40,274 nt of DNA, taken from NCBI GenBank assembly GCA_965202585.1, contig OZ241826.1:100812001-100852274 (forward strand), in the 5' to 3' direction. The stretch is from Thalia democratica. Taxonomy: Eukaryota. The notes under the pieces were generated by a model. The model ran no database searches. It was not told the origin of the DNA and saw nothing but the letters and a program-made list of their open reading frames with translations. This document shows positions 6,113-36,829 of the stretch, piece by piece. The position numbers and the translations under genes were made by a program. Every line of letters starts with the position of its first letter. The first letter of the stretch is position 1.

Positions 6113-6606
6113 TAATACTTTTAATATTTTTAACTATTCAAACTATTTTTTTTACCTTAAACGTAATTCATACTTAAAATTTTTTAAAACAACAAAAGAA
6201 ATAAAACAAGTAGTAGTTTATTAAAATTCATTAGCTATTTTATTTTAAAACTCATTTTTAATTGTTTCGGACTTCATTGTTTAAGTGATGTTGTTTTTAA
6301 ATACTGTCTTGAAAAAAATATTTCTTTTTATTTAGTATATTTTTCGTCTAAATAAACATAATACATTTAATATTTTTAAACTATTCAAACTATTTTTTTT
6401 ACCTTAAACGTAATTCATACTTAAAATTTTTAAAAACAACAAAAGAAATAAAAAAAAGTAGTAGTTTATTAAAATTCATTAGCTATTTTATTTTAAAACT
6501 CATTTTTAATTGTTTTGGACTTCATTGTTTATGTGATGTTGTTTTTAAAAACTGTCTTGAAAAAAATATTTCTTTTTATTTAGTATATTTTTTGTCTAAA
6601 TAAACA
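6113..6606 (+). repeat. Tandem duplication, 2 x ~246 bp
   Basis: 6113-6358 and 6359-6606 are near-identical (taatac...aactattcaaac...ggacttcattgttt...gtctaaataaaca) with few substitutions. Confidence 0.95.
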
Positions 6607-9613: not shown

Positions 9614-10023
9614 GAAAACATACTTTGAATACATGCAATTTACTTTATTTTCAATAATAATTCTTAGTTTTGAAGAAAGAAATTATTAAATCACGACACA
9701 AATATAATCTATAAAGAGTATTTACAATCGTAAAGTTATATAAATACTAACATTAACTACGCGATGTAGACGTTTTCTTGATTCTCGAAACTAGAAAAAA
9801 ACGTTGAATTTAATCGTAACTTGAAACACAGTATAACTAATTCACCTACTAATCGACTAACGCGTATTTGAAAGACAAACGCAAATATATACGCATTGAA
9901 TTGAAATTAAATCCTTAAAATAAAATAATGTTTGTTATTAATACTAGAAGCACGTCACGAAAACTGCGTAAAACAGTTCACAACTACTCCTTTAAATGAA
10001 TTTTTCGCGTGAATACTGCGACA
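9614..10023 (-). mobile_element. LTR-like repeat copy (solo or orphan LTR)
   Basis: Collinear homology with 23914-24326 and 20283-20420. On the - strand it begins TGTCGCAGTATTCACGCG and has AATAAA near its 3' end. Confidence 0.7.
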
Positions 10024-10099
10024 CACCCATGTTTCAGTTTAAATGTGCATATGTACTAAGTTTAGTTTAAAACGCAATCATTTAAATTTTTTTACTTTT

Positions 10100-12790
10100 C
10101 ACTTATGATCCGTAACAACCACAAAACTTTGCAACCCTTGTGGTTATACTTTGTCTGCTCTAAAGACCCTGCAATGTTGAGCGACTCTTCTGCAATTGCA
10201 TCATTATTTTTTTTATGCTCCATAAAAACCTTGGAGTTGCAAGTGTCACATTCTAACCAGTGGTGCAGCAGTCTGTAAACCAGCTACCGCAATTGCAGTG
10301 TTTTGTATATTGACAGCAGCCCAAGCCTTGCTTTGACCAGTCAGGTCTTAGATATGATTAATCTTGTACACCGTTTCGTTTTGAATCTATGATCATCCTT
10401 ATGATTCAATAAATGCTTGATTTAAATATTCTCATCACATGAGTTTATGTTTTAGACTGAAGAATCTCTAAAAGGTGACATAATTTTATGGAGTTTAGCA
10501 TAGTTTAAAACTAGATTTATTAGCCTAAACTAGCTCCGTATATTTGTGGCAGAATTTAAAATTAGGAATTTTCTAATGGAGTCAAAGTATTTCGACAATC
10601 GATCTATGCTCTAAGAACTTAAACTTCTTTGGATCAAGAATTATACCCGTTTTTCAGAACTTTTTGTACGAAATATACTGTCTCCACCCATGACACTCTA
10701 ACTCAGAAATCATAAAACGTAGTGTCACCTACACATCTTTTTTTTCTTTTCTTAAAAATCTTATAAAATAGCTACAAAACGACGATTTCAACCATCACCT
10801 ACCAATACAAAACCCTGTTGGACTCTAGTAGAACCTACTAAACGCAGTGACAAATGTTGTTAAAAGCTTATCATATTCTCTCACGGTAACTCCTTGATAC
10901 CCCTTCCACGCGTCTGTTAGTCTTTAACGTTTCTTATGGAAGTCTGACGCACATGTCTCCCTCTTGCAATACTTGTTAAGAGGTTAGAGATCTATAGTTC
11001 TTTTAGGTGACGCATATTGTTTCCTGACGATACCAGGTTATAAGTTCACTAAATAGGAGACGTTCTGAGACTTCTTATCCTTGTTAAGTTCCGCTTAATC
11101 TGCTTTTGCCAACGAATTTGTACGTGTGCCTGAGTATGAAAGGCAGGAGGTTCAGCAACGTCTTCTAAATAGATTTTAAAAAGGGGCCTACTTTTTTGTT
11201 TGAGCGGTTTATATGGACATACATAAAATGTAGAAGCTGCAGAAATTTTAATAGCCACTTACGCATCTTATTAATATTTGCAGTTATATCCTTGAATGGA
11301 AGCCTGCTTAGTTTGTCTAGAAATTCCTTTCTTGTTTGAAAGTTGCAGGTTACATCATGTGGGTTGAGCTTATTTTAATCTTTTTTTTTTCAAAATTGCA
11401 ACAAATTTAAGATGCTTATGAGACAGCTGAAAACCAATAATGGAAAAATATCTGTTAGAAATTAGGGGGCAAACCATTATTTTACACAAAAGATAAAATC
11501 CAGTTACTGAGTTACTAACATAAATAATACCATTGCACCTGACTAAATCATTCTTTAGAGATGTTCCACTAAAGTTGGTTTTAAAACACATAAAATTCTA
11601 ACTGGAATTTTAAGTAGCAGCCCGAGTTATGGTTGAAACAAGAAGCAAATAACTTATAACAAAACCAGAATCTTGAAAGATTGGACTGAGCATAAATATT
11701 AGCTAAGGCACTTATTTTAAAAAGTTATTTGTGCAGTATTTAGTAATTTTTATTGATGCACGTGTATGGTCTAAGGACTTGACATTACACAATATTTCAC
11801 AGTCAAGCATAATGTTGCTTTGGTAATTAACTTATTAGCGTGTAATAAAATTGTCCGGGTATCCTGTTGCATAAAAAAGAAACTATCATTTTTGGTTTTA
11901 ACAAAATTAATCTTCTATGACTGGTGCGCCAACAAGATAAACAATAACTAAAATGTTTTAAATTACGAGTTCCTTTATTTTTTCGAATAAATAGAATAAA
12001 TTTTTATAGCGTTGGCTAAGGAGTTGTCAACTTATCTCCTACAATAAATTTCTTTTTCTGACTTCGGAAACAAGAGATCGCTAATACAGCTTTTAATTGT
12101 ATTTCTGTCAATTTCTTTGCTTTCAATAACTAAAATTATTCGGAACGATTATATAGAAAATATATCTTCAGTTGTATGAACTTCTCTTTTTATGTTATTA
12201 CAATTGCAAGCATAATGCCATTTGTTGCCACTTCCATTTAACTTGTCACATTCTTTTTTACACATCCTAACTAACTGACTGATGTGAAGTTACAAGTTTC
12301 CGCTTTGCAGCGAACACGGGTTGCAAACAGTCTGCATAGTTTAGCATGGTCTTAATGCAAGCACTTCATTTTTGAACTTTTGACCCGAATTGCATCTTTT
12401 GTGACTGCTATTGACTCAATTAATTTAGAATAATGTTCTTCTGACATAGCCGTCAGCCTAGGATCATTTGCCATTATAAGTTTGCAAAGTTTGTCATGCG
12501 CGCATTGAAACATTGTATGCTTGTATTCTGGATGCTTATGTTTGACAGAGTTTCGAACCTCCCTTACCAGCGGACGATGTAGGCCATGCCTCATTGGTGA
12601 ACCTTAGTCGACTGTAGACCGAATCAATTTAGGTCCATTCTGTAATATTACAGCTTTTATGATCCATAGTCCTTTCATGTCCCGTTTTGGTCAAGAAGCC
12701 CAGAAACTAAATCACATGGTTAATCTAGCGTTTAATAGCAGCATCAATGAATTTAGAACTTTATTACAACCATTTTACTTTGATAAGATT
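10100..12790 (-). mobile_element. Degenerate Ty3/gypsy LTR retrotransposon internal region (gag remnants, protease, RT, RNase H; integrase absent)
   Basis: Hand translation across frameshifts gives protease ALANIYAQS (ADTGAQS-like, ~11685-11705), RT TDAWKGY (~10900-10918), LLTTFVTAF, RVQQGFVLVGDG, RCVGDT (xxDD site, ~10725), GIILDPKKF (~10635), TNIRS*FRLIN, and RNase H PDWSKQGLG (~10340), EESLNIAGSLEQTKY and VVTDHK (~10105). The order matches gypsy pol. Many stops and frameshifts. The upper (5') boundary is approximate. Confidence 0.92.
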
Positions 12791-13071
12791 AACTAAAGAA
12801 AATGTCCGTGTTTAAATATTTAATTAACAATTAAAAATCTGAAATAAAAACAGGTATAAATATAAAGACATATCTAATTTAAACATTGGTCTATAATAAA
12901 ATGAGCTAAAGTTAAACTACTCTACAATGACACAATAGTATGTCAATACGTTATTTCAGCTATCTTTAAATTTATTATACTCCAGATAATTTATTTTTGT
13001 AATAAAGTATTATATAAATTTAAAATTATCTTTACATAAAAGAGGTTCTTAACACATGTTTTTTATCACAG

Positions 13072-13150
13072 AAGACATAAAGTAGTACAAAATGTTGGTT
13101 TTCTCAATTTTTCAAATAAAAAGGAATTATTTAACAAATTTACAACACAG
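13072..13150 (+). other. Candidate 79-nt exon
   Basis: ttttttatcacag acceptor and CAG|GTAAAT donor. One fully open frame (RHKVVQNVGFLNFSNKKELFNKFTTQ), or internal ATG MLVFSIFQIKRNYLTNLQH. Confidence 0.4.
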
Positions 13151-16100
13151 GTAAATATGTTTTTTGTTTTTAATATAATTTGTATGACAAATTAGTATAT
13201 ATTGCTAAGTTTATAATGTAAGTAATATACAAAAAACTATAATAGTTTACTCTGCAACTATATTTAAGTTGTTTAAAAATTAATTAGAATATATTATCAA
13301 TGTTCTCATTTTCTTTTGAAAGTTTGATATATTGTTCAAGTATTTTGGTCAGCAAATTTTTGATAACTACTAAGTTTTACTTACATTATAAGAAATGGTA
13401 CAAAACATCCGAACTGTTTGTTTTACAACTGATATTTGCTATGATGATATTAAATTAATTTTGTCACTAACTAAAAGTGCTAGTTCAATTCAAAGTTTTT
13501 TTGTAAGTTCTAAATTAAAAATTTCGAAACATAGTTTTGAAAACTTGATATACTGTTCAAGCCATTGAGTATAACAAACGGTGTCACTAATAATTATTTA
13601 TAAAAGTGGTTATTTTGTTTCGTGAGTGTTTTAAACTTATAAGCGTTTAAAACACAAAAGTTACAGAGTGATTTTTTGTTTAAGGTTAAAATCTTCAATG
13701 CTTACCTCTGTTTTTTCGGTTGTCTTAACTGAATTTCCTATGAACCTAGAAAGTTGTTTGATATAAAAACTATGAAATTAAATTGTAGGTTGTTTTAATG
13801 ATAAACAAATTGAATTGTCATAAACAACATTAATATGTCACTAAATACCATTAAATATTTTGAATGTATTCTAATAAAGATAAGTAAGTACATTTATTTA
13901 AAAATGTACTTATTTGTCTTATAACTTTTTTATTTTTAACTTAAAAGTAAACAAAGATGTATTGAAGAACGCTTAAAAAGAGATTTAAGCAACTATTGAC
14001 CACAAAAATAAAATTTTAGTGAAAAAAAAGTCAAACCAAGTGTTATATACTTATACTTAGTTTGAAATAACTGAGTTAAGGTTAACTTCAATTTATTTCG
14101 TTATTTTTTTCAATTAAGCATTTAGAAAATTTTTAAGTTCAAATGCAAGGAGGTTTTGGTATTTTTACGTTTAATAAAAGTTCTGCACAATTTTTTTGTG
14201 AAAAAATGACGCAAAAACACCTGAAAAACTTATTTTTCTTATTAGTACCAAATTTATTGATAACTAAAACTTTACATTCTTTTGAAGTGTAGTGTATATC
14301 GTAAAACGTATAGATATTTTGAGTATTAAATTAAAAGGCATTTTGAAATAATTAAAAAAGTTGTGGTCTCAGAATTAATAGTTTGTGAAGATTTTATATC
14401 TTTTCTATTATGTATATATTCAAGCCAATACGAAATAAAAACGTTATTTTTTTAAAGTCATCAGACCCTCTTTATTCCCCGCAATTACCCAAAACATCCC
14501 TGAACTTTTCAAAAACATAACATTTATTAAACCAAAATAAAAAACAAATAAAATTAAATATTAAATAGCAAATGTTGGTTTATAACTTAAGCTATACCAA
14601 ATCATGTTTACAAAAATTAACAAACACCGAAAGTAAACAAGGTAGTACAGATAACTAAGCGTATTTAATTATAGTTAAATGCATTAAAATTTATATATTT
14701 TTACATAAGAATAGATGCACAAAAGTTTTAAGTATAAATTTTTTGATCAATGTATGAGAGTTGTTAAAAAACTGTTCATGCACGAAATTTATTTTAAACC
14801 AAGTGTTGGTTGGCTACATTGTTTGGAAAATGTATTATATAAACTAATCATAAAATGTTTAAAATCTAGAATTGATTAAACCTCATTTTAATAAGCACTA
14901 ATGTGTCATAAGAACGATTTGAAAAGTGTTTTAGAAAATGTACTTTTTTTGTAGAATTGTAATTTAACCTAAGAAATAAGTTTTGAACAAAGTTGTTTGA
15001 GCAGGTTTTATTTTCCCGACCCTTCAATCCTATTAACGAGGGCTTTGTACTTATACTATTATAAAAAATATACAAATAGCTTGCTACAAACTTTGGCTGT
15101 TTTATATTTAAAACTTGATATACGTGATACTTTGTTCATACAGTTTTGTAGTTTTTACCATAGAAGTTTTGAGTCTTTTTTTTTAATTACCATCAATAAA
15201 ATACTAAGTCTAAACATTTTAGTGATTTGAACAATATCTATTATAACTTGTAAACTTGTGCACGCAAATTCAGTTAAGACTTACGTTACTTTCTTAGTTA
15301 ACCGCTACTTCGATATCCCTAAAATGGGCGGTATTGCTCCTTTAAGAGGTTTTGATTTTAAGAGGGCAATGGATACCAAGAATGGAAAAAGAAATTTATG
15401 TATTATAATCGACAAAATCTAAACAAAGACGGCAAGATTTTCAATTTACCTAGTAATCAATTCTTAAAACAAGTTTTGAAAACTCCAGCTTACGTTTTAC
15501 TACGTTTGATGCAGACTTGAATAAACGAAACGTATAAATTTTTATTTACAATGAAAACAAAATCTTTGTTCTTTTTAAGTTGATGAAAAACTTAGGATTA
15601 ATTAAAAATTGAAGTTGTAAACTTATTTGATTAAAAAACAAAGGAAACAGTAACTTTTATCTTGAATATATAAGTTAATACTCAAACTTTTTTAAAAGAA
15701 AACAGTATTAAGTTTGTAGTTAAATAAATATACTAAAACATGATATATTAACTGTAAATTTCAATTTAACATATGAAATAGTAATACTACTCATAAAGAT
15801 AACTTACTTTTCGATAACTAATTTAAAGTTACAAATCTTTTTGTAATTTGTAAAATATTTTAAACTACGACCTTACAAAACGACATTATACTACGACTTA
15901 ATAAGTTTTAACACTTTAAGATTTGAGAATTGCATTTGTTTAGAGTTTAATTACCACAATCAAAAGAGAAAAATTAAAAAAAAAAATATTGTTTTCTGGT
16001 TTCTGTAATACATTGTTAGTTTTTAAAGTTAGAACGTTTTAATTCAATTATAAAAGTTTTAGTAGTAGTAGATTGAAAGTAATCTTTTTTTCTAGGAAGT

Positions 16101-18543
16101 ATGAGACAAGAGAAACAAAAAAAGTAGACCTGTATAAATAGGGTCTACATTTCATTAAGAAAGTAGTTGTAACAGAAAAGACGACTGCTGCAGCTATTTC
16201 TAAATATATAAAAATTTGATTAAAAAAAAAATAAGACGCAATTGCGCCTTGCAATTAATCAATTGTAATAAAAATGAAAAAAAGATTAAAGCGTTCAATT
16301 TTAATAGAATATGGAATATCATTTCTTAACTATTTTACATATTAAGTAATTTAGAAATATACTTAATTAAGATGGTAAATAAAACAGTTTCGTTTCTCTA
16401 CGTTTTATTTGTGTTTTTAAAGTTTGTGAACAAATAAAACTTTTGTTTCTTTAACTCTTTGGGTTTTTATTCCCTTAAAACCTTTATAAGGTAAAGTTTG
16501 CTTTATCTTTAATAAATCAATATTCAATGTAACAAAATAAATAAGAAAATATTTTAGTTTAAGTAAAGTATCAACAAACTTTAGATTATAATACTTATTG
16601 AACTTTCTTAATTCTACTTACTTATAAAGTAGTTTGTATCATAAAAAAAAGTTAAATTACACAATATGAAGTAAAAAATGCATTTTTAAAACCAAACCGA
16701 TGTATAAAATGTTTTATTTAAATTGTCTGAACTTAAACTGTCATAAATTAATTTTTCCAGATTTTCATCTATGAATTTGAATAGTTGAACTTCAATTTCC
16801 AGGTGTGAATCAGTTTATAAAATTGTTTAAAATGAATTCTTTTGCATTTTATTTATTTCAATAAAAAACGCAGTTTTTTGTTAAGCGCTTTTCTAGAGCA
16901 TTTAAATATGTAAAATCTCATTAACCAAAATCTAATTAATAAGTTAATTTAGAATGGTTGCTGTCTTAATTTAGTTTTAATTGATGTCTATATATTTTTT
17001 GAGTTTTACATATAATTAGTTATAACTATTGCTATTTCATTTTAAATTTGTAGTGATGAGTTTTTTTCACCAACTGTTTTATTTTACATTACATACAGTA
17101 CTAGAACTTAAAACCTAACTTCTTTTTAATATATTTTAAAACATTTTGATTTTAATTAAAGAAATAATCATACTTAGACTTTAAAACGCTTAGTTACATA
17201 TTTTGCTGATTTTAATTTTGGTACTTTAAAAGAATTGTGTAAATGTTAAAGTAAGAATATACTTTTTAATCTTCTTTATAATCATTTATATATTTGGTAT
17301 ACATATACTAACATTTACCTGTTTATATAAATACTATTTATTAAAAATTATTAAAGTTTAAATTAAACGTCATTAGAAAATAAATTGTTTCTACGTTAAA
17401 ATAAATTCTGCTTAATTAACGTATTTAATATTGCTTAACTTTTTCATAAAAACGTGTCATAAACCATAATTATTTAAAGTATCTATTTTAGCAAAAGAAA
17501 TTGAGTATATTAAAAGTATTAAAATATATCTCTTTTCAACATTTCTAAATTTTTTGAAAAGGAAGTAATTATAAAAAAACTCAAAGATTTGAAAACTAGT
17601 TTTGATAATATAAATAATGATATTTTGAAGCAAATCGTATAAAAGTTTTTTTTTCAAGCAACTAAAATATGAGACATTATTTTCATAAATAGCTGTAACT
17701 AAAATTTTAAGATCATTATCAATGAGATGTTATCTGAGCGAATATTTTTTCAAGTTGCAACCAATTTATAAAGATTTTTTCAATAACCTAAATATCTTTT
17801 ACCTATAATGTTTAGCTCAATTCTCGTCTATATTAAAGAGATGTTCAATTTAGATATAACATTTTTTAACTAAGTTATGAAATTTTACAAAATACGTTGT
17901 TTGTTTTCTTTTATCAGACGGTCGTAAAAACTAATTTAATTTTATAAGTTTAAATTAGATCAAGATATTTTTCGTTTAAAAAATTCAACTTCAGTAGTTG
18001 TTATTTTAATTGTGTATTTAAACTTATACGATATTTTCTAAACAGCTTTTAGAAGTCAGTTAAGTTTCTGTTTTTACGTTTGTTTATAGGCTCTTTTAAT
18101 CTTTAAGCCCATGAAGAAAAGTATTTGTTTTTTTGTTTGATTTTTTTTGTCTGCTCTCATTCATTAATAAAATATACTTAAGTATTGTATGATAAAAAGT
18201 ATACTATGTCCACTATTTTTCAACTGGGAAGTGTCAAATATGCACAAAATGTAGGTTTTGGGTTAGTGACTCTTGTAAAATTATTAAAATTTAAGTTAAA
18301 AATCAATAAAAAATTCAGTAAAACCCAAGTTAAATAAAACTCTATTTAAATTTAATTACAAGTTAATTTAAACTAGAGCAAGACTTAAACTAAATAAATT
18401 TACGGGACATTTAAAGTATTGATAAAAAAGTTTTATTCAAACTTGTTTCCAAAATAATTTGTTTTAACTTTAAATTAGAATTTTACTAATTATAAATAAA
18501 ATAAATTCCAAATTTTTATGCACACATTTATTATTTGTTTTAG

Positions 18544-18665
18544 TTTCACGAGAGTCACCCTTGCAAAATTAGCGTATTATGGAAAGATTTAACCTATGCA
18601 AAAATTTCAAACTGAGTAAATCGTGAAAAATTGACAATATGTGCTATTACACTGCCGTTCAAAAG
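18544..18665 (+). other. Weak candidate exon (UTR plus MCYYTAVQK)
   Basis: tttgttttag acceptor, ATG at 18639, AAG|GTTTGC donor. All frames are closed upstream of the ATG. Confidence 0.2.
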
Positions 18666-19698
18666 GTTTGCCATTTTTATTTTTAAAATTTTGTTATTTT
18701 ATTTGTAGGATGTTATAAAATCTAGGTTATTTTGTTTTTTAAACAAACAAACAAAACATCAACAATATTATAAGGGATTAAACATATGTGATACTATAAG
18801 CACGTATTTAAAATAAATGTCTTTCTTTATATAATTTGAAGACTTTAAAAATGTCTTTACGGTGCTTTAAAATACTTTAAAAAGATTTTAAATGCTTCAA
18901 AATATACATATTTTTAATAAGCATAGTTTAATTTTTTGTAGAGCACAAATAAAAGGTTCAGTTTTTGTATATTTTTCAACACATTCTCATTAAGTACTAC
19001 TACCTTAATTTTCAAATAAGTAAAATTATACATTATTAAAACAAGAAAGTATTATTTAATAAAATAATTACAAATGCAAAGTTTATACAAAATATAAAAC
19101 AACAAAAAAACTGGTATACACTAGAATTTTGGAAATATAACCGGTTAATGCTTAATTTAATAGAAATGAACAATAGTCCGTGGTTTAAAGAGTTGACTGC
19201 TCACATTTTTTTAACATGTACAGATTAAATCATTAAATTGTGACACTAATACACATTTAAACATAAAACAGAAAATAAAGTATACAAACGAACTGAAACA
19301 TGAAATATGTTCATATTTTGCATAGAACAGATAAGACATGCATGGTTTCAGTTTTTATAAGTCTCAAATTTAAACTTTATTACAATCTCATTATATATAA
19401 GATGTGCGAAAATAATTTACAAATTGTTTTCTGTAGTATTTCTAATACAATTCATTTTTAGTACAAGTAGATTTAACGTTTTAAAATCATAAAATAAAAC
19501 AAATAAATTAGCGAGTTCATAAGCTTATCGTTTATTAGTAAACAAATTTAACAAACACTTTTTTTGCTAATCTTTTAAAATTTAACACTTATTATACAGT
19601 TAACTACAGGTCAAAACATATCATTTCTTTATTTGGTATATTATTAAAGTAATTTGTCTTTTAAAACTCTATACAAGCCATTTAAGTGAATTTAATAC

Positions 19699-19951
19699 TA
19701 CACTTTTGGACACTTTTCCACGAAAACACCTTCGTACTAACGAAACGAAGGACACTTTTGCACGGCAACTCTTTTTCACGAGCGTCACTTTAGCACAATG
19801 GGACATATTTGCACGGCGTCACTTTCGTACGAAGGGTCACATTTGCACAGCGACACTTTTGCACGCAGGATAATTTTTGCATAAGAGACACTTTTGCACA
19901 CAAAGTCACTTGTGCACGGCGTCTTATTTGCATAACGACAATTTTTCACGA
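19699..19951 (+). repeat. Degenerate ~15-16 bp tandem array (G[A/T]CACTTTTGCAC-type)
   Basis: Repeated ttttgcac units seen directly. Confidence 0.85.
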
Positions 19952-20282
19952 TATCTCAATACAGAGTTGTTCTTAATATAGATGTGTTTAAGGGTAATAG
20001 GAAAAGTATAGCAGATTAATACAACAATCGAAACAAAACTTTATTTTTTTACATAAACAAAAGAAACACAATTATAGCTACAACACACTATACTAAAACT
20101 ACATTTAAACACAAATGATAATGCAATTATAATAAGTATCTTATAACTTATCACGAAAGCATCTTTAGTTTAACGCGTTTGGAATGCATATTAAGTTTAA
20201 GTACATCAATAACTCCCGAGTGGTCATAACTTGCAAAATGTTGTTTATTTTATATCAAAAGCAAAGAAAACTTCTTTTTTCT

Positions 20283-20420
20283 TACGTATTCATTGAAAAA
20301 AATTAATTTCTAACAATAAAAAATGTTTGTTTTTTAATACTGGAAGCACGTCACGAAAACTGCGTAAAATAGTTTACAAAATCTGCTTTTAAATAAATTT
20401 ATCGCGTGAATACTGCGACA
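20283..20420 (-). mobile_element. Partial LTR-like copy (putative 3' LTR of the gag-CSD element)
   Basis: Homologous to the other two copies (ctggaagcacgtcacgaaaactgcgtaaaa...cgcgtgaatactgcgaca). On the - strand it begins TG immediately after a purine-rich tract aaaaacaaaagaaaa (20421-20435). Confidence 0.6.
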
Positions 20421-20663
20421 TTTTCTTTTGTTTTTATTTAAAATTAATGTTGTTTGCACAGATTTTAATAAACACAGACCTAGTTTTTTTCCCAAACCAG
20501 TTAAACAAAAGAACGACCAATGCCGCGGTTTTTCATTTTAATAATTAGTACTCATCCGAGAAACTGTATTACTTATTATCTCATCAAATACATAGTTGTC
20601 AAAAATTAAGATAGTACACAACATAAGGAAAAAGTAAAAATGATAGTCATTTAGTTATCTTCC

Positions 20664-20762
20664 GGCTTCTTGTACTCAGGCTTCTTGTCCTCGGGCTTCT
20701 TGTCATCGGGCTTCTTGTTCTCGGACTTCTTGTTCTCGGACTTCTTGTTCTCGTACTTCTTC
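20664..20762. repeat. 15-bp minisatellite, ~6.5 units (GGCTTCTTGTNCTCG)
   Basis: Direct repeats seen. The - strand reads (E)VREQE repeats in one frame or KK(P/S)E(D/N) repeats in another. Confidence 0.9.
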
Positions 20763-21899
20763 TTTTTCGATATTTGTTTTCAGCAGGAACGAGTTGTTTC
20801 GAATCGCTTGTTCTTCACTAAACTTCAAATTCAAAAATGTATCAAATTCACTTGTTGACATAGAAAATATTCGTCTTTTCATTGTTCATCATTGTAGTAT
20901 TCATTTGAAAAAACTTATGTATAAAAATATGCAGCTCAGAAAAATTAAATTGATTTTCTAACAAGAAAGTTCAGTAAAAGCTACTAAGTTACTATGCTAA
21001 AAGACAATAACGAAACTGTCAGTATTTAATTTCAAACCCATTATTTTATACAAAACAAAAACAAATTGAAGCATTTAAAGATGCATTGAATAGAAAATTA
21101 ATAGTTTGAAACACATGAAACATTTTAATTTTGTTTTTAACTTAAAAAAACATATTTTCTTAATATTTAACTCGCAAACTTTAATAAACAAAACAAAAAA
21201 TATTTTCTTTTAAGTATTTTACAAAACAATAAGTACTATTTTTATACACAAACTTTTATAGGATTCAAGTATAAACTATTTTTTTAAAGCGACACAACAC
21301 TTATGCATAATAAAAATTTTTAAAGAGAAAAATTTAGCGAGTGTTTTGTTTTTAATCGTTAAAAGTCAAAATTAAATGGGAGTTGAAAGTACTTTTAAAT
21401 TTAAAATTTATAGGAAAAATTCATTACAAGTCGAATTTAAAAGCTTTAAACTTTAACTTGATTATTTTACAAACAAAAAAATTGATAATTTAATTCTGTT
21501 TATAACTAGAGAAAATGTAGTTACTCAAGTTTTAATATGAAAACTAGGCTTAATAAACTTTTCTATTGTATAATTGTTATGTCGTAGCTTTTAACTAATA
21601 GTTCAATTACCAAACTGTAATTTAAAATATGAAAAACTTTATAACACATTATTAAAAGTAAAAAAGCTATAAAATTTTACAACTCAGAAATTTTATCAGA
21701 AAAGAATACAAAACAAACACATTTAGTAGTTTCTTGCAGTTTAATTTCTTAAAAACATAACCTGAGTTTGAAAATTTTTTAAATAGATTTTGATGCTAAT
21801 AAAAAATTACAATTTTTTACTTTTATTAAAGTCTGTTTTGTTAGTTTTGTGAAAATATTTATATTTTATCTTCAAAAGGGCTTTATGATAAATATTTAA

Positions 21900-23742
21900 A
21901 GTTTTACACCTGCTATAATTTATTCTGAGTCTTTTCATTCTGTGTTATAATTTATTTTTTGTTAAAGGAATCAAATACTGCCGAATTGTTTTTCTCTTTA
22001 GCAAACACGTTGCTCGATACACTAGTTTCTGATTTTGTTTTTAAAGAATTGTAACTGCCTGAGTCTTGTTTATAACTTTTAAGCTGCAATGTTGGCACCT
22101 TATGTTTTGGTTCGCTACCATATTTTTAATTGTAACTGCTATTTGTCTACTGTTGGTTATGATGTTTTCCTTTGCTGAGCTTACCTTGTTTTGCTGTAAA
22201 AGCAAAAGCTTGCTTATAAGCTCTAATAGCTTTTCTTTTCTGCTGTTGGGGATTACTTGGATAATAGTTTCCGTTTAATCTTTTTTGTTGAAACGTTTGG
22301 TTGTAGTTTGAATTCTTATCTACAGCATACTTAGTCTCTTGAACTGTTTTACGATTAGGACCTGTCACGTTTGCGGTTTCTGACATGATAGTTTTACCTA
22401 CGACAATATCAAACTGGAGCTTTTCTCCTTGTGCAAGAGACCTTAAGAATTAGTTCGGGTTGTTTTTGATGACAGCTGTAAAATGAACAAAAATAAAGCT
22501 GTTTCTATCATCACGATGAATAAAACCGTAACCTCTGTGAAAATAAAACCATACTATTTGACCAGTTAGTCCAATTGCTATATTGTTTTTTGGCTACCTG
22601 AGCTTTTTCTTTGACTGTTTGAAACTCTTTGGTTGTATTAGATGTTTTTTTAGGTAAGTGTTGATGACATGACAAATACTGTGCAATGTTAACACTTTTA
22701 CTACTGTTCCCATTGTATGATTTTCTTGGTTTAAATTTTCTCTAACTTGATTATGTTGACGATAATTGTAATTATGATTAATACCATTATCTCTTAAATG
22801 AAAATTTTGTTGATTATTAGGACAAACACGCTTATGGTAGTTTATTTTAGCCTTATAATGATTTTGCTCATACTGCTGTAATCTATCGTATTTAATTTGC
22901 TTAGGTATTAATGCGTTTTCTTTATAAGCATTCCATATGGCTTGTCCTTTTCTTTTAAAAACTTCTAAGCTTTCATTAAAATGTTCCATAATCTTATCTT
23001 TGATCGAAAATGGCATCAAGTATGCATGAAAAAAGTTAATTCTGTCCTGCTCTAGACATTTAGCCCAGCTTACGGCTGTTAAAAATATTTTATTAAAATT
23101 TTTAGGCTCATTCCATACTTGAACTTTATCTAAAATTTCAGCCAACTGATTGTCGCTATTAACAAAAAATTTAAAAAAAAAAAACTTTAATTTCTTTCAC
23201 CTCGTTCTGTCATTTTATAATAATCTGACAACTCTTCTCTTGGCCAAAACCAAATTAAAAAATTGTATTTCTCTAAATCGCTTACAATACCTTCGTCATA
23301 TAATTCCTGCTCAAAATAGTTTATCGTATCTCGAGGATTCTTTACAACGTCTAACCTCTTAAACTTTTTACTCAGTCTTTGCGCCTTTAATGCGTCGCTA
23401 AAGTTATTAAAATTATTGTGATTACCATTTTGTAACCATTGTAAAAAGGTTCGCGTTTTTCCAGCATCGCACGTTCGTAATGTTGTGATCTAGACTGCTT
23501 TAATCTATTATTTAAATTTTTAATTTTCTTTTGCAAAATTCTTAATTTTTCTTCAGTTGTTAGCTGCTTAACTTCGCTTGATTTTCTGAAATGTTGTTGA
23601 ATACTATTCGACGGCAAAATTTAATACCATTTTCAATCATTTATGCTCGATGATGGTTATTAAGATTGCGATCGTCATTGTTGTTCGTGTGCATTTCTTC
23701 TGTTGACTGCTCAAAGATTCCTAAACCAGAAAATTCAAGCAT
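21900..23742 (-). pseudogene. Disrupted gag-like ORF with C-terminal Y-box-type cold-shock domain and a basic/Gln-Asn low-complexity tail
   Basis: Starts at an ATG ~80 nt after the PBS-like site. Coiled-coil-like segment (EEKLRILQKKIKNLNNRLKQ), then NPRDTINYFEQELYDEGIVSDLEKYNFL (resembles the gypsy gag N-terminal capsid motif; moderate), then the 183-aa ORF 22594-23145, one TAG, and the CSD in the same frame. Several frameshifts and stops. The 3' end is approximate. Confidence 0.6.
22318..22575 (-). pseudogene. Cold-shock domain of Y-box (YBX1-like) type, intronless, one internal stop
   Basis: GLTGQIVWFYFHRGYGFIHRDDRNSFIFVHFTAVIKNNPN*FLRSLAQGEKLQFDIVVGKTIMSETANVTGPNRKTVQETKYAVD aligns almost residue for residue with the Y-box CSD ([81 protein letters not shown]). 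TAA at 22450-22452. Confidence 0.93.
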
Positions 23743-23819
23743 CTTAAGAGACACTGCGTTGTTTCCACTTTAACCAAATAAGTTATTGTATATAGTGGTT
23801 TATGTTTAAGGATTAGATA

Positions 23820-23830
23820 CGTGGCCTCCA
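23820..23830 (-). promoter_or_regulatory. Putative primer-binding site TGGAGGCCACG (tRNA-Thr-like)
   Basis: Complementary to a tRNA 3' end CGTGGCC-U-CCA. A U discriminator with a GGCC 5' end fits metazoan tRNA-Thr. It lies between the LTR-like sequence and the gag-like ATG. Confidence 0.55.
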
Positions 23831-24326
23831 GTAACTTACTTAACTTACTGCTATACTCACGAGTAATAAATAATATGCTATCAGTAAAACGTTATAAAGC
23901 TTATTTCTTGAATAAAACACACTTTGAATAAATGCAATTTACTTTAATTTTAATAATAATTCTTAGTTCTGAAAAAAGAAATTATTAAATCACGACACAA
24001 GAAAAATCTATAAAAATTATTTACAATCGTAAAGTTATTTAAAATACTAAAATCAACTATGCGATATAAACGTTTTCTTTTTTCTCGAAAATAGAAATAA
24101 ATGTTAACTTAAATCGTTACTTAAACGTAACGCGGAACAACTAATTCACCAACTAAGTAACTAAGCGCGTATTTGAAATACAATCGATAATATATACGCA
24201 TTAAAATGAATATTAACTCCTAACAATAACAAAATGTTTGTTTTTAATAAAAAAATGTTTTTTTGTAATACTGGAAGCACGTTATGAAAACTGCGTAAAA
24301 CAGTTTACATCTACCCCTTTTAAATA
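23831..24326 (-). mobile_element. LTR-like copy (putative 5' LTR of the gag-CSD element)
   Basis: 23914-24326 is homologous to 9614-10000. The segment 23831-23913 links it to the PBS and ends ...AAGTTAC on the - strand. The terminal ~25 bp (TG end) is missing. Confidence 0.6.
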
Positions 24327-24740
24327 AGAAAATGAAATTTTAATATCATTTCTTGTTTGTTAAATAATAAGAAATATTATTGTGTGTTCTTATTTGTTTT
24401 TTATCATTCAATTAGCTGATAAATTTAATTATTTTATCATTGCTTTTTAATAGTGATCTTTATTAAAAACGCTTGGAAAAGCCTTATAATAAATTAATGC
24501 TTTAACAAAATCATATGTTATTTGAAAATTGTTTTCGTAATGTAATATTGAAAAAGCAGGTGCTATCTTAAGCTCAAATTCTACGTAGCAGTATTTTTTT
24601 TTTAAGTTGATGAAAATAAAATTTTATATTGAATTTATTTTAATACTTGTATCAGAAAATAAAATCTGGAAGCACGCAAAATTGAAGCTCCATTCAAAAC
24701 TGACGGACTGTTTAAAATTTTTGCAGTGAATAAATATTTA

Positions 24741-25011
24741 CATGAAAATATAACGCCGTGCAAAAGTGACGCCTTGCAAAAATGTCGCCATAAGAATTTA
24801 AAGTTGTGCAAAAGTTTCGACTTGTAAAAATGTTGCCGTACAAAAATGCCGCCATGCAAAAATGACCCTACGAGCTAAAAAATCGCCATGCAAAAGTTTC
24901 CCTCGTGCTAAATTGACGCTCATGCAAAAGTGACGTTGTGCAAAAGTCTCCCTATATGCAAAAGAGTCGCCGTGAAAAAGTGTCCTCTCGTGCAAAAGTG
25001 ACTGCCACCTA
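24741..25011 (-). repeat. Degenerate ~15-16 bp tandem array, inverted relative to 19699-19951
   Basis: gtgcaaaagtgac units on the + strand, with the same ggcgtc/ggcgac-containing subtype as the 19.7 kb array. The outer end reads AGGTGGCAGTCACTTTTGCACG on the - strand. Confidence 0.85.
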
Positions 25012-25751
25012 TTTTCTGTTTTTGTTTTATTAGCATAACAGTGCAAAATTTAAGTTTGTGTACAATGTAAACATAAAATGGGAATAATTTTAAACTTTAC
25101 TCAAAGTTATACTAATTATTTACTGCATAATAATATATTTTCTTAGTATTTGAAACAAAATAAATTAAAATATTTGTAGTTTAAAATATAAATAAAATTA
25201 ATTTAAATATTTGTTGTTTATATTTGTATAAATTTAACTTAAATTTATTTCAGTTATACCAAAGTCAGTCATGCAAAAATTGTGGACTAGTCAATTATTA
25301 ACATGCATGTAAAGTAATCAGATGATAGAACTAAAAAAATATTAGAGACTTGCAAAAAAGATGCAGTGAATAAGTTTGTTGTTGTAAATATTTAAAATTG
25401 TATTTTGTAGAACCTAGCAGATCTTAAAAAAATACTAGTTGTTATTATGTTAAACCAACATTACTTATCTATTATAAAATATATTAACACGTGAAAAACT
25501 TTTTGTATAGTTTTAAATCAGACCACTATATTGTTTAATATTTAAAATGTTCTACGAACCTAAAAAGTATTTTTGATGTGTGTTAGTTATATAAACATTT
25601 TCGCAACTGCTTATAGTACAAAAAAAGCAAACTTGACAATTTAATAAGTACAATTTTTAACAAGTAATATTCTCTACAAACTAGAAATATAACACAGAAC
25701 CATTTATAGTATTATTAAAAAAAAACAATAAGTACAAATTTTATTTTCCAG

Positions 25752-27377: not shown

Positions 27378-28649
27378 GTAAGTAACAGACCAAAAATACA
27401 TTTAAACCAAAGAGTAAACTTAATTTTATAGAAAGTTAGATCAAACTAGTTTTTAACTTTTTTTGATATACTTGTTTTTTACTCAAATGATAAAGCTCAT
27501 GAAACCAGCTGCTTAGTTATTGATTTTGAGAGTTTTATAGTTGAGTAAGATCCTATTTGACATATTTAGGACAAATCTTTTTATAGTACTTAAACAAAAT
27601 ATTATACTTGGTTAGAGATGTTTTATGTTTTGCTTTACAAACCTCTTTGCAGACAAACTTATTTTTCTCAAATTAGCTTTTACTTGAAGATATTTTGTAC
27701 ATTTATGTAACTTACACAATTTAATTTACACAGTTTTAAAAATATTTTACAACCCTTAATAGACGTATAAGTTAAAAATCCTGTTGTTTAGACTTGTAAT
27801 AAAATCTTGGTTAAATGACAATTCAAGTTCGGACAATTCAAATTTTAAATAAGAAATCTTTAAGAGGCTATATCTCAAAAATTAATACATATTTTTGAAA
27901 AATAAAAAAGCGGTTTCAGGTCTAAAAAGGTTATGATTGTAAAAATAAACATTTTGAAGAAAATTAATATGTTTTAAAACTCGTTTTAGCCATAAATCAA
28001 AACAAATTACTAGTGTATATTTCTCTTTTAGTTTTGGCAATGTAAATGTTGACCGAATTGAATAAACTAGTTTTGGTAGACGTGTACGATTTGTTTTGAC
28101 TTTTTTCGAGCTTAACAAAAGCAATTGCTAAACAGCTTAATTGACATTAGTATGAAATATTGAGCATTGGAAACATTTATTTTTATATTTATTTTAGAGC
28201 AAAATACTGATTTAAATGATATTTAAAAATATAGTTAGTAAAAATACATGGTATAATCATTAGGGTAATAGTAACTAAATTCAAAAAACTAGAATAAAAA
28301 GCATTGAGCAAAATTTTTTCAACAATAGATCTGAAATATTAACTTAATAACTAAAAATGTTAAAAAAGTAAAAAAAAAAATACTTTAAATTTGATTGAAT
28401 AAAAATAACATGTCTGTAACACAACTTTAATAAAGTAAGTTTTAAAAAAGACCATCTAAAGCAGCAATTTGTTTGCAAAAACTCAAATTTTTACTATCAA
28501 TTTTCTAAAATGCCTATGGTAATTTATTGATAATGCGTTGTAAGATATTTTAATTTTCACGATGATTACAACAATTTTTTATGAAACAAGTTTTAGACTG
28601 TTACTGTATTTTAAGAACTAATTATTTTTTGACACTTTAATACATAGAT

Positions 28650-29245
28650 TAAAAAAATATACATATGACTAAAATTTCATAACAATATATATTTCATGCT
28701 TATTTTATTAGTTGTTTGCTAAGCAATAAAAATAAAGTTTCAAATCAAGCTTATATAGTAAAAATGTAATCAACGTAAAAGTAATAATATTAAAGCAAAG
28801 GATAATTAACAATACATTATTACCTCCAGTTACAATGCAGCTAAAAAATTAATAAAACATAGTTAAAACTTATAAAACAGTTTATGTAAACAACGAAACA
28901 GTATAATCAAAATCTTTATGTTAACACAATTTAGGTTTTCTTAACATGATAAAAATAGCCAAAAGTTTAAGTAAAACAGAAATTTTAAAACATTTTCTAA
29001 TACTTTTAAATCTTTTCAAGTTATAATTACTTGCACAATCAAGGTTGATAACTAGGTGTTCTGCAATTGCAGATCTTTTTGTAGCATTTACTACTCTGAT
29101 AGAATTAGTTTTCTTAATACTCATTTTACAAAATTCATCAATACTTTTTGGAACATGCTCCATTATCCTTTTGCCAAATTGTCTTTAAGTCATTCTGATA
29201 TAACTAGCTTTTCCAGTTTAACGGCTTTTGTGATATTTGTGCTTT
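28650..29245 (-). mobile_element. Penelope-like element 3' fragment (GIY-YIG endonuclease C-terminus plus 3' UTR)
   Basis: Translation SYIRMT*RQFGKRIMEHVPK...KRSAIAEHLVINLDCASNY...LRKPKLC matches the YIG...R..EH...SAIAEHL pattern of PLE GIY-YIG domains. Confidence 0.8.
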
Positions 29246-29284: not shown

Positions 29285-29780
29285 GATAATTTGATGAACT
29301 CTGTAAAATGAGTTATAAGAAAAGTAAATCTATCAGAGTTGTATATGATACAAAAATATCTGCTATTGCAGAACACCTAGTAAACAACCTTGATTGTGCA
29401 AGTAATTATAACTTGAAAAGATTTAAAAGTATTTAACATTTTTTTAACATTTCTGATTCACTTAAACTTGTGGCTATTTGTATTTTGCTCAGAAAACCTA
29501 AATTGTGTAAACATAAAGATTTTGATTATATTGTTTCGTTGTTTTCATAAATTGTTTTACAAGTTTTTACTATGTTTTATTAATATTTTAGCTGCATTGT
29601 AGCTGGAGGTAATAATGTTTTGTTAATTAACCTTTGCTTTATTATTATTACTTTTACGTTGATTATATTTTTACTATATAAACCAGATTTGAAACTTTAT
29701 TTTTATTGCTTAGCAAACAAATAGTAAAATAAGCATGAAATATATTTTGTTCTGAAATTTGAGTCATATGTATATTTTTC
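29285..29780 (+). mobile_element. Second Penelope-like 3' fragment, inverted relative to the first
   Basis: Reverse complement aligns to 28650-29150 (roughly 85% by eye) and encodes SAIAEHLVNNLDCASNYNLKRFKSI. Confidence 0.8.
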
Positions 29781-30059
29781 TAAAGAATTTATAACTATTT
29801 TTATAAAATAAAAAGTGAATATTTTAAAAGATTTTTTAAAAATATTTTTAATGAAATATCTTAGTGAAAGTTAAAGTATTACACTCAAACAACAATTAGA
29901 AATAAAAGAAATTCATTTTATAGTTTTTTTAAATGTACTTGATCAATTTTAGAATCTATTTTAAATTTTTGTTCAAGGTTTTGTTTCTGAATTTCATATT
30001 GTAAATTAGTCTATTATTATATTAGAATATTTACAAAAATAAGTATAAATCATACATTT

Positions 30060-36065: not shown

Positions 36066-36340
36066 AAAGACAAAATTGCACGAGGGTACTATATTGCACG
36101 AAGACAAAATAGCACGAAGAGTCAATTTTGCACAAAGATACTTTTTTAAAAAGACAAATCTTCACGAGGAGACACATTTGCAGAAAGACAAAATAGCACA
36201 AAGGGTCAATATTGCACAAACATACCTTAGCATCAAGACAAATTTGCACGAGGGGACAAAATTGCATGAAGACAATTTTGAAGCAAGGGACTATTTTGCA
36301 CGAGTTACATTTTTGCACAGAGGGTCATTTTTGCACGAGA
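36066..36340 (+). repeat. ~15-16 bp tandem array (AAGACAAAATTGCACG subtype)
   Basis: Direct repeats seen. They explain the ORF-track calls 36076+ and 36055-. Confidence 0.9.
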
Positions 36341-36673
36341 GCAAATAAAGAAAAAAAAAATAATGAAAATAAAAGATAAATTATTAAAAAACATAAATCA
36401 ATAAAAAGTTACTGATTTGGGATAAGCATAAGGGGTAACAGTGATAGTAAAAACAAAAATGAAAACATAAGTTATAAAAATATTTAAAAAAAATACAAGA
36501 AAAATAAATTAATTATAATAAATTAAAAAAAAGAAAAAAAAAACTACCCATCGAGGTTAAGGCTTAGGAGTAACAGTGATAGTAAAATTTTAAATAATTA
36601 ATTAGTTGAAAAAAAAACATAGTTAAAAGTAAAAAAAAACATATATAAATAAAACTAAATAAAAATTTTTACC

Positions 36674-36829
36674 CGTGCAAAAGTTTCTCTGTGCAAAAAT
36701 TCTACTAGTGCAAATATATCCCCTCGTGCAAAAGTGTCTTTGTGCAAAAGTGACCAATTGTGCGATTTTGTCTTTGTGCAAGAGAAACTTCATGCAATTT
36801 TGTCCGTTCGTGCAAAGTTGACACCTACC
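36674..36829 (-). repeat. ~15-16 bp tandem array, inverted relative to 36066-36340
   Basis: gtgcaaaagt / ttttgtcttt units. The outer end reads GGTAGGTGTCAACTTTGCACG on the - strand. Confidence 0.85.

Follow-up and report, generated by a model that had tools for sequence, protein, structure and literature searches.

A degraded retroelement without pol in Thalia democratica and a Gag family carrying a Y-box-type cold-shock domain

How non-autonomous long terminal repeat (LTR) elements win packaging in helper particles is an open question, and the Gag-only elements described so far come mainly from plants. The question arises at an animal locus in a 40,274-nucleotide stretch of the Thalia democratica genome (contig OZ241826.1, positions 100,812,001 to 100,852,274 of the forward strand; hereafter the window, from whose first base all coordinates are counted). 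Between positions 20283 and 24326 a first-pass annotation had recognized, on the minus strand, a retroelement of about 4 kb lacking pol and running from an LTR through a primer-binding site (PBS), a gag gene fused to a cold-shock domain (CSD) and a polypurine tract (PPT) to a second LTR. This order is indeed present, in damaged form: the locus is a broken copy of a ~4-kb repeated unit composed of an LTR remnant, a PBS-like TGGAGGC, the gag-CSD open reading frame (ORF), a further 1.4 kb, a purine tract and a second LTR of 130 bp. We consider it fairly likely (a probability of roughly 0.6) that the window holds a dead copy of a high-copy, non-autonomous, TR-GAG-like family of the Ty3/Gypsy (CsRn1-like) lineage, whose sole protein, Gag-CSD, would place a nucleocapsid-like CSD in mixed particles.

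The gag-CSD ORF (21862..23694, minus strand), delimited by tblastn with the relatives P0010, P0027 and P0031 and by translation, is disrupted by five or more changes of frame and four or more in-frame stops. Its decay is even over the domains (73-82% identity to P0010) and the copy, judged from its sequence, is an inactive pseudogene. Intact relatives are found in public assemblies: 13 proteins of 589-637 residues, falling into three 90% clusters that we treat as subfamilies. In these proteins a coiled coil is followed by a capsid, an N/Q-rich linker, a Y-box CSD, a basic, Q-rich region and a hydrophobic tail. On the minus strand of the window, the coiled coil (residues ~30-70; helix 30-68 in the P0009 model, placed by tblastn) corresponds to 23485..23608, the capsid (CA) domain (residues ~100-265) to 22900..23399, the CSD with a YB-1-type C-terminal extension to 22315..22566, and the conserved tail to 21875..21934.

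The CSD proposed in the first-pass annotation is recognized by Pfam in the window copy itself (E 2e-13), despite an in-frame stop near 22450, and in its relatives at E 1e-21. P0004 matches zebrafish YB-1, the closest among solved structures, at E 7.6e-30; a CSD of the YB-1 type indicates an animal host. The RNP1/RNP2 aromatics and the C-terminal extension of a Y-box CSD are present, partly degraded in the window copy; W-F...GYGFI is kept in all 20 of the relatives listed and FVH in all 19 that reach it. Between subfamilies the CSD is 82-93% identical, as compared to 67-85% for the capsid lobes, 75-84% for the C-terminal tail and 41-76% for the other regions, a degree of conservation that suggests selection on the CSD. 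In every CSD protein tested, the 17-mer of highest hydrophobicity lies in the tail. A QCLSCHQ motif within the variable linker (window ~22660-22680, residues ~338-345) is kept in all three CSD subfamilies; it is of neither the CCHC nor the CHCC type.

Identification of the N-terminal half as Gag comes from its predicted fold. The model, computed for the N-terminal 283 residues of P0009 from 48 sequences (mean predicted local distance difference test score, pLDDT, 70.7), has one long helix and a pair of helical lobes, with pLDDT mostly 80-90 across residues 121-260. When 48,161 chains were searched with this structure, ranks 1-28 were all retroelement CA, matched over residues 100-183, with the second lobe barely tested. 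The top matches were Copia (Z 8.3, root-mean-square deviation 3.3, 81 residues aligned) and PEG10 (Z 8.2); murine leukaemia virus, Arc and Drt2 were also found. The first two rows returned by Foldseek were the C-terminal domain of Arc, at E 0.53 and 1.6. Because the Z values are middling and Foldseek gave no significant match, it is the uniformity of the match list that identifies the capsid. Features from ESM scored 0.93 for Retrotrans_gag, a lead only, while an ESM Atlas search with full-length P0004 gave scores of at most 0.80 and a full-length structure model was uninformative (pLDDT 32.7) and not used. The modelled N-terminal half thus has the fold of a retroelement capsid over residues 100-183, in agreement with the Gag identity initially proposed.

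Around the ORF, in an AT-rich window (GC content 0.19-0.35 per kb), lies a repeat that is present in three minus-strand copies, at 23914-24327, 20291-20420 and 9615-10023. The first two flank the ORF as a direct repeat (24250-24327 versus 20318-20396, 86% identity, blastn E 1.7e-18), and the first also aligns with the third (23914-24323 versus 9615-9996, 80%, blastn E 1e-103). The upstream copy can be described as a 5' LTR remnant that has lost its first ~17-25 nt (23831..24345, the part from 23831 to 23913 being assigned by position only), and the downstream copy as the first 130 bp of the 3' LTR (20291..20420), starting with TGTCGCAG. The third, truncated at its 3' end (9615..10023), is either a solo LTR or part of another element. 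Identical paired columns number 95 of 108 between the 5' and 3' LTRs, 112 of 128 between the 3' LTR and the third copy, and 328 of 382 between the 5' LTR and the third copy; the copies are as incomplete and diverged as they had been said to be. The copies at 20420 and 10023 both open with the 18-nt TGTCGCAGTATTCACGCG (0 expected in 100 shuffles), and their upstream flanks are dissimilar (score 22 versus a shuffled mean of 29). With unrelated DNA on the outside, this 5' edge of the repeat is a true one. The TGTCGCAG edge occurs in two of the three copies and is missing from the upstream one, which consequently does not begin with TG. Of the proposed TG-starting repeat on either side of the ORF, the direct repeat is therefore real and the TG start is confined to the downstream side. 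Direct terminal repeats with a TG edge, as in an LTR retrotransposon, are found, both flanking copies being incomplete. Continuation of the 3' LTR beyond 20290 was considered and rejected, as the DNA there is not LTR-like (score 48 versus a shuffled mean of 52). About 30 nt inside the LTR start (24310-24325, 20375-20395, 9975-9995), a G-rich purine run followed by TGTAAAC or TGTGAAC resembles a PPT-LTR junction and could mark an older LTR boundary.

The PBS candidate, TGGAGGCCACG (23820..23830, minus strand), lies 136 nt upstream of the ORF start. Its TGGAGGC (23830-23824) is the only one in the window, where 0.19 are expected and at least one occurs in 15 of 100 shuffles; this uniqueness is modest evidence for a PBS, and gains from the place of the motif, downstream of the LTR and ahead of the ORF start (23694). 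The motif had been placed directly after the upstream LTR. This is so only if the LTR is taken to end with ...GTTAC at 23831, an end assumed from the TGG that follows: homology between the LTR copies stops at 23914, 83 nt short of the TGG, and none of the copies shows the LTR 3' end by homology. LTRs typically terminate in CA, and those of CsRn1 in AA or TA. The primer may be tRNA-Thr, a putative assignment based on the ends of metazoan tRNA-Thr. The acceptor-stem pattern gave nine loci in viral contigs, with two tRNAs (Arg and Ile) and none for Thr, which neither supports nor excludes this assignment. No tRNA gene was found in a scan of the window, no Rfam match in 19000-25500 and, by titles, no relevant report on the motif in the literature. 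At the other end, the A-rich purine tract reported before the downstream LTR is present (20421..20440, minus strand; 17 of 20 purines) and ranks within the top 0.4% of minus-strand 20-mers; with a single G, it makes a weak PPT candidate.

As first noted, there is no pol between the repeats: no protease, reverse transcriptase, RNase H, integrase or GPY/F motif was found in any frame of 20421-23830. In the 3' internal region (20421..21861, minus strand), which belongs to the repeated unit, the longest minus-strand stop-free stretch is 60 codons. It contains a 15-bp tandem array (20640..20774; TRF period 15, 6.5 copies) whose length differs among copies (joints skip 58 and 71 nt). Read on the minus strand, the array gives K/E/P-rich or E/R/Q-rich repeats and then a short hydrophobic stretch; it may be the remains of a second ORF or serve as an RNA signal. 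The window copy thus has the single gag ORF and the lack of pol between LTRs that define TR-GAG elements, and for the family at large the evidence is indirect. No full-length CSD ORF (0/13) is on a contig longer than 4 kb (maximum 3,422 bp; the internal region here measures 3,410 bp), as against 13 of the 17 Gag-only ORFs (Fisher p 2e-5, computed on contig sizes that are not independent observations, the members being related and assemblies breaking at repeats). Contig sizes and read depth together lead us to infer that the whole CSD family has no room for pol.

Read depth also indicates that the unit was amplified as a whole. Across 20340-24308, the bins of run X1 have depths of 12-28 thousand (12-18 thousand over the 3' region, 18-25 thousand over the ORF), against 149-1,055 over 10134-19205 and 37-54 for single contigs. 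The third LTR reaches a bin depth of 61 thousand and a summed depth of 102,524 at 9716, summed depth not being equal to copy number, as the tool itself warns. The pattern is alike in four of four runs, two of the runs with the sequence being labelled marine metagenome. From these depths the family would comprise hundreds of copies. Dips at single positions to 692-2,294 (23809, 23340, 23609) are attributed to local divergence of the window copy. One contig of run X3 skips 1,362 nt of the ORF (window 22176-23539; depth 437), which suggests an internally deleted sub-family. Because the LTR-like repeat begins sharply at TG and has been amplified together with the ORF and the 3' region, it is not an independent miniature inverted-repeat transposable element or Helitron, the case that would have undone the initial interpretation. 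A 14.7-kb element extending from 24345 to the third LTR was also considered and discarded, as the DNA in between has low depth.

When 1.84 billion representative sequences were searched with a profile, 61 matched. The nearest Gag-only proteins, P0032-P0034 (65-66% core identity), lack a zinc knuckle and have QGNxxPSSxQ at the C-terminus; a CX2HX9CX4-5C knuckle is found in 14 of the 160 proteins collected, from three clusters of more distant Gag relatives. CSD proteins end instead in the hydrophobic tail. The QGN/QKN ends may be frameshift sites; no paper on a CsRn1 slippery site was found. In a capsid-core tree of 21 rows picked from 79 extracted cores, the CSD forms cluster together (90/89), nested within a larger group (87/98) that includes the knuckle-less Gags, neither branch being starred. 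Given this nesting, the simplest reading of the sequences would be that the zinc knuckle was lost first and the CSD gained later. Both CSD and knuckle are missing from the Gag-only relatives nearest to the family, which is why we regard the CSD as an acquisition. The earlier suggestion that the element had kept an RNA-binding Gag in place of pol is thus borne out for pol in the window copy and has to be amended for the CSD, which was not retained.

These features set the family beside, rather than within, the CsRn1 clade (CsRn1, PwRn1, AgCR). In the report on that clade (PMC2582038), the CHCC signature is CX2HX9CX3C. Likenesses to it are the CX2HX9C-type knuckle of the Gag relatives, an LTR that starts with TGT, and Gag-only relatives that end like a separate gag ORF. 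In contrast, the last knuckle spacing is 4-5 in the relatives and 3 in CsRn1, the CSD family has neither pol nor CHCC (not found in any CSD protein, nor in P0032-P0034), and TGGAGGCCACG differs from the tRNA-Trp PBS, TGGTGAG/CCCCGT/A. By knuckle and PBS the element is not a CsRn1 member; it is best described as a CsRn1-like Ty3/Gypsy element. The reverse transcriptase phylogeny and the PR-RT-RH-IN order that further characterize the clade have no counterpart in an element devoid of pol.

A second fusion was found in P0074, a protein of 621 residues from a 2,494-bp contig, in which a Gag core 36% identical to that of P0031 is joined to two KH domains (Pfam E 1.1e-17). The nearest solved structures of the pair are IGF2BP1/3 and FUBP, and here too a hydrophobic stretch lies near the C-terminus. 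In the tree P0074 stands on a branch of its own, and the approximately unbiased (AU) test rejects a clade uniting CSD and KH forms (p 0.0004, with long branches present). It may be an independent parallel to the CSD fusion or, as one sequence on one contig, a chance chimera.

One could envision the following cycle. The LTR would drive a single RNA from which Gag-CSD is made. The capsid domain would let this protein co-assemble with the Gag and Gag-Pol proteins of a closely related autonomous element of the P0032-P0034 type, which would provide protease, reverse transcriptase and integrase in trans; both the identity of this helper and the co-assembly are inferred. In a lineage already devoid of the zinc knuckle, the CSD would occupy the nucleocapsid position, bind and chaperone single-stranded RNA, favour packaging of the element's own RNA and help the tRNA primer to anneal at the PBS. 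With PBS and PPT as starting points, reverse transcription would then rebuild LTR-bounded DNA. Given the architecture, the odds for and against a nucleocapsid-like role of the CSD are evenly balanced. In 2001 Skabkin, cited in PMC3201874, reportedly described strand annealing by YB-1. No mention of YB-1 was found in PMC5035971. Precedents exist for the individual steps. Pol-less Gag-only elements can transpose with a helper (PMC8704663). If proteins are provided in trans, a mini-Ty element can do with the signals next to its LTRs alone, and Gag/nucleocapsid acts as a chaperone for dimerisation, packaging and annealing of the tRNA, a function that in Ty1 is exercised without a zinc finger (PMC4974528). 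The TR-GAG, mini-Ty and Gag/nucleocapsid precedents are what leads us to favour a nucleocapsid-like CSD in mixed particles. A more general scheme, doubtful at present, is that pol-less satellites of the Gypsy lineage have repeatedly recruited host RNA-binding modules (a CSD, a KH pair, each with a hydrophobic C-terminal segment), the knuckle-less helper giving the enzymes and the satellite giving an RNA-selecting capsid subunit that biases or assists packaging.

Known systems share parts of this design. Plant TR-GAG elements have in common with the window element two LTRs, a single gag ORF and no pol, and their transposition is helper-dependent; in contrast, the present element belongs to an animal-type genome, is Gypsy/CsRn1-like, and has a CSD captured in frame by Gag, a fusion that the accessible part of PMC8704663 does not mention for TR-GAG. 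Capture of CSDs by retroelements is already known from bird endogenous retroviruses (ERVs), for which PMC12287698 describes repeated capture of PF00313 between LTRs, in its authors' view possibly adaptive. There, 46 of over 470,000 ERVs have a CSD, its position differs from one to another and the elements are retroviruses, whereas here the CSD is fixed in frame behind the capsid in an amplified pol-less family of three subfamilies. In the domain table of that report CSD appears 45 times, and there is no entry for KH-I or KH_1. Y-box proteins such as YB-1 (PDB 6a6j, 6lmr) share the CSD and its C-terminal extension, 55 of 88 residues being identical to zebrafish YB-1; no other part of YB-1 was matched, and the CSD is here fused to a retroelement capsid. 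The domesticated Gags Arc, PEG10 and PNMA2 likewise have a coiled coil and then a capsid fold, but the window family is multi-copy and LTR-flanked and uses a CSD as RNA-binding module. Cold-shock domains are not mentioned in the available portions of two papers on captured domains (PMC6431247, PMC9289625). No Gag-CSD or Gag-KH Gypsy family was found in the literature by titles and abstract starts, a survey outside whose scope lie Repbase, Dfam and most subscription journals, which may annotate it.

Several observations, beyond the interdependence of contig sizes and the weakness of the PPT, count against the interpretation we favour. The 3' LTR is 130 bp long and does not resemble the 5' LTR more than it does the third copy; with the outer LTR ends lost, no target-site duplication, which would measure 4-6 bp, can be read. 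The best Z score falls in the range that the tool calls common, neither PDB nor BFVD gave a Foldseek match at E <= 0.001, and no Pfam Gag family scored above the cut-off (DUF7041 reached E 0.06 in 2 of 48 sequences). Numerous Gag-only relatives survive with neither a knuckle nor a CSD, which implies that a CSD is not required to replace the knuckle. The presence of pol beside these relatives would follow from contig size and a shared QGN/QKN-type C-terminus, and no Gag-Pol fusion was found in a homolog search (A5) that covered 1,116-3,185 residues only. Lastly, scans of metagenome contigs for the relatives' loci (86 pattern matches for P0004, 53 for P0103) and of viral contigs with alignment A4 (235 pattern matches) yielded none that was confirmed. 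As no second genomic copy was seen in these scans, the LTR-ORF-LTR structure rests on one damaged copy.

What the CSD does is the point on which the strongest competing explanation differs. The domain might act before assembly as a YB-1 mimic that stabilises or masks the element's RNA, boosts its translation or shields it from small-RNA silencing. We find this rather unlikely. It would account for a CSD that resembles YB-1 down to the C-terminal extension and for nearest Gag-only relatives that do without a knuckle; the bird ERV CSDs, found at varied positions and not in Gag alone (PMC12287698), and the KH pair of P0074, most like the mRNA regulators IGF2BP and FUBP, also fit. However, in 13 of 13 full-length members the CSD is in frame behind the capsid, the usual place of the nucleocapsid, and as part of such a fusion it would be carried into particles.

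The family could, on the other hand, be autonomous elsewhere, with gag-CSD as ORF1 of pol-bearing elements and the window copy internally deleted. Deleted forms do exist, as the 1,362-nt skip in run X3 illustrates, and no full genomic copy was seen; nevertheless, none of the 13 CSD ORFs is on a contig above 3,422 bp, the 1.4-kb non-coding 3' region and the ORF have depths of the same order, and the proteins end in a hydrophobic tail and not in QGN/QKN. This makes the proposal improbable. We hold in similarly low regard the view that Gag-CSD serves or obstructs something other than its own element, as an Arc/PEG10-like RNA carrier for the host or a dominant-negative restriction factor against the helper, while still spreading as a retroelement. 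The coiled coil and bilobed capsid, the appearance of PEG10, Arc and Drt2 among the fold matches, and the strong conservation of RNA-binding domain and tail would suit such a role, but high copy number, three diverging subfamilies and even decay (73-82%) typify a selfish element.

Two TTGCAC minisatellite arms lie outside the retroelement, one at 19745..19950 (plus strand) and its inverted partner at 24710..25041 (minus strand). Arms of this inverted 16-17-bp TTGCAC/GTGCAA type, present also at 36066-36810, have very high depth and resemble the ends of foldback DNA transposons. The idea that the gene is cargo of a 5.3-kb foldback-type transposon and the LTR an unrelated repeat has in its favour that inverted arms enclose the unit (19784-19876 and 24910-25002, 73% complementary) and that the 3' LTR is so short, but it is hardly credible because depth falls to 420-1,292 at 24675-24682, between LTR and right arm, and like arms 300 bp apart at 36066-36810 carry no gag-CSD cargo, quite apart from the protein being a retroelement capsid behind a PBS-like motif. 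Homology of the element-side spacers to the spacer of the foldback at 36066-36810 was looked for and discounted, scores being within those of shuffles.

Other features of the window are a segment beside the third LTR (10024-13100; GC content 0.32-0.35) that is low-copy repeated, has broken reading frames and, searched in pieces, matches no Pfam family; a 502-nt inverted repeat (28640-29141 and 29291-29792, 90% complementary, 149 nt between); and a 248-bp tandem duplication (6113-6606, 96% matches).

The preferred interpretation, a helper-dependent family with a nucleocapsid-like CSD, bears on the question raised at the outset. In this animal-type family the capsid appears to have been kept, pol dropped and a host RNA-chaperone domain conserved above the capsid, and a related Gag may have taken up a KH pair independently. 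If this is true, the nucleocapsid slot of Gag would be a swappable module that can be filled with host RNA-binding domains, and because one capsid exists in nature as Gag, Gag-CSD and Gag-KH, what each domain contributes could be tested directly.

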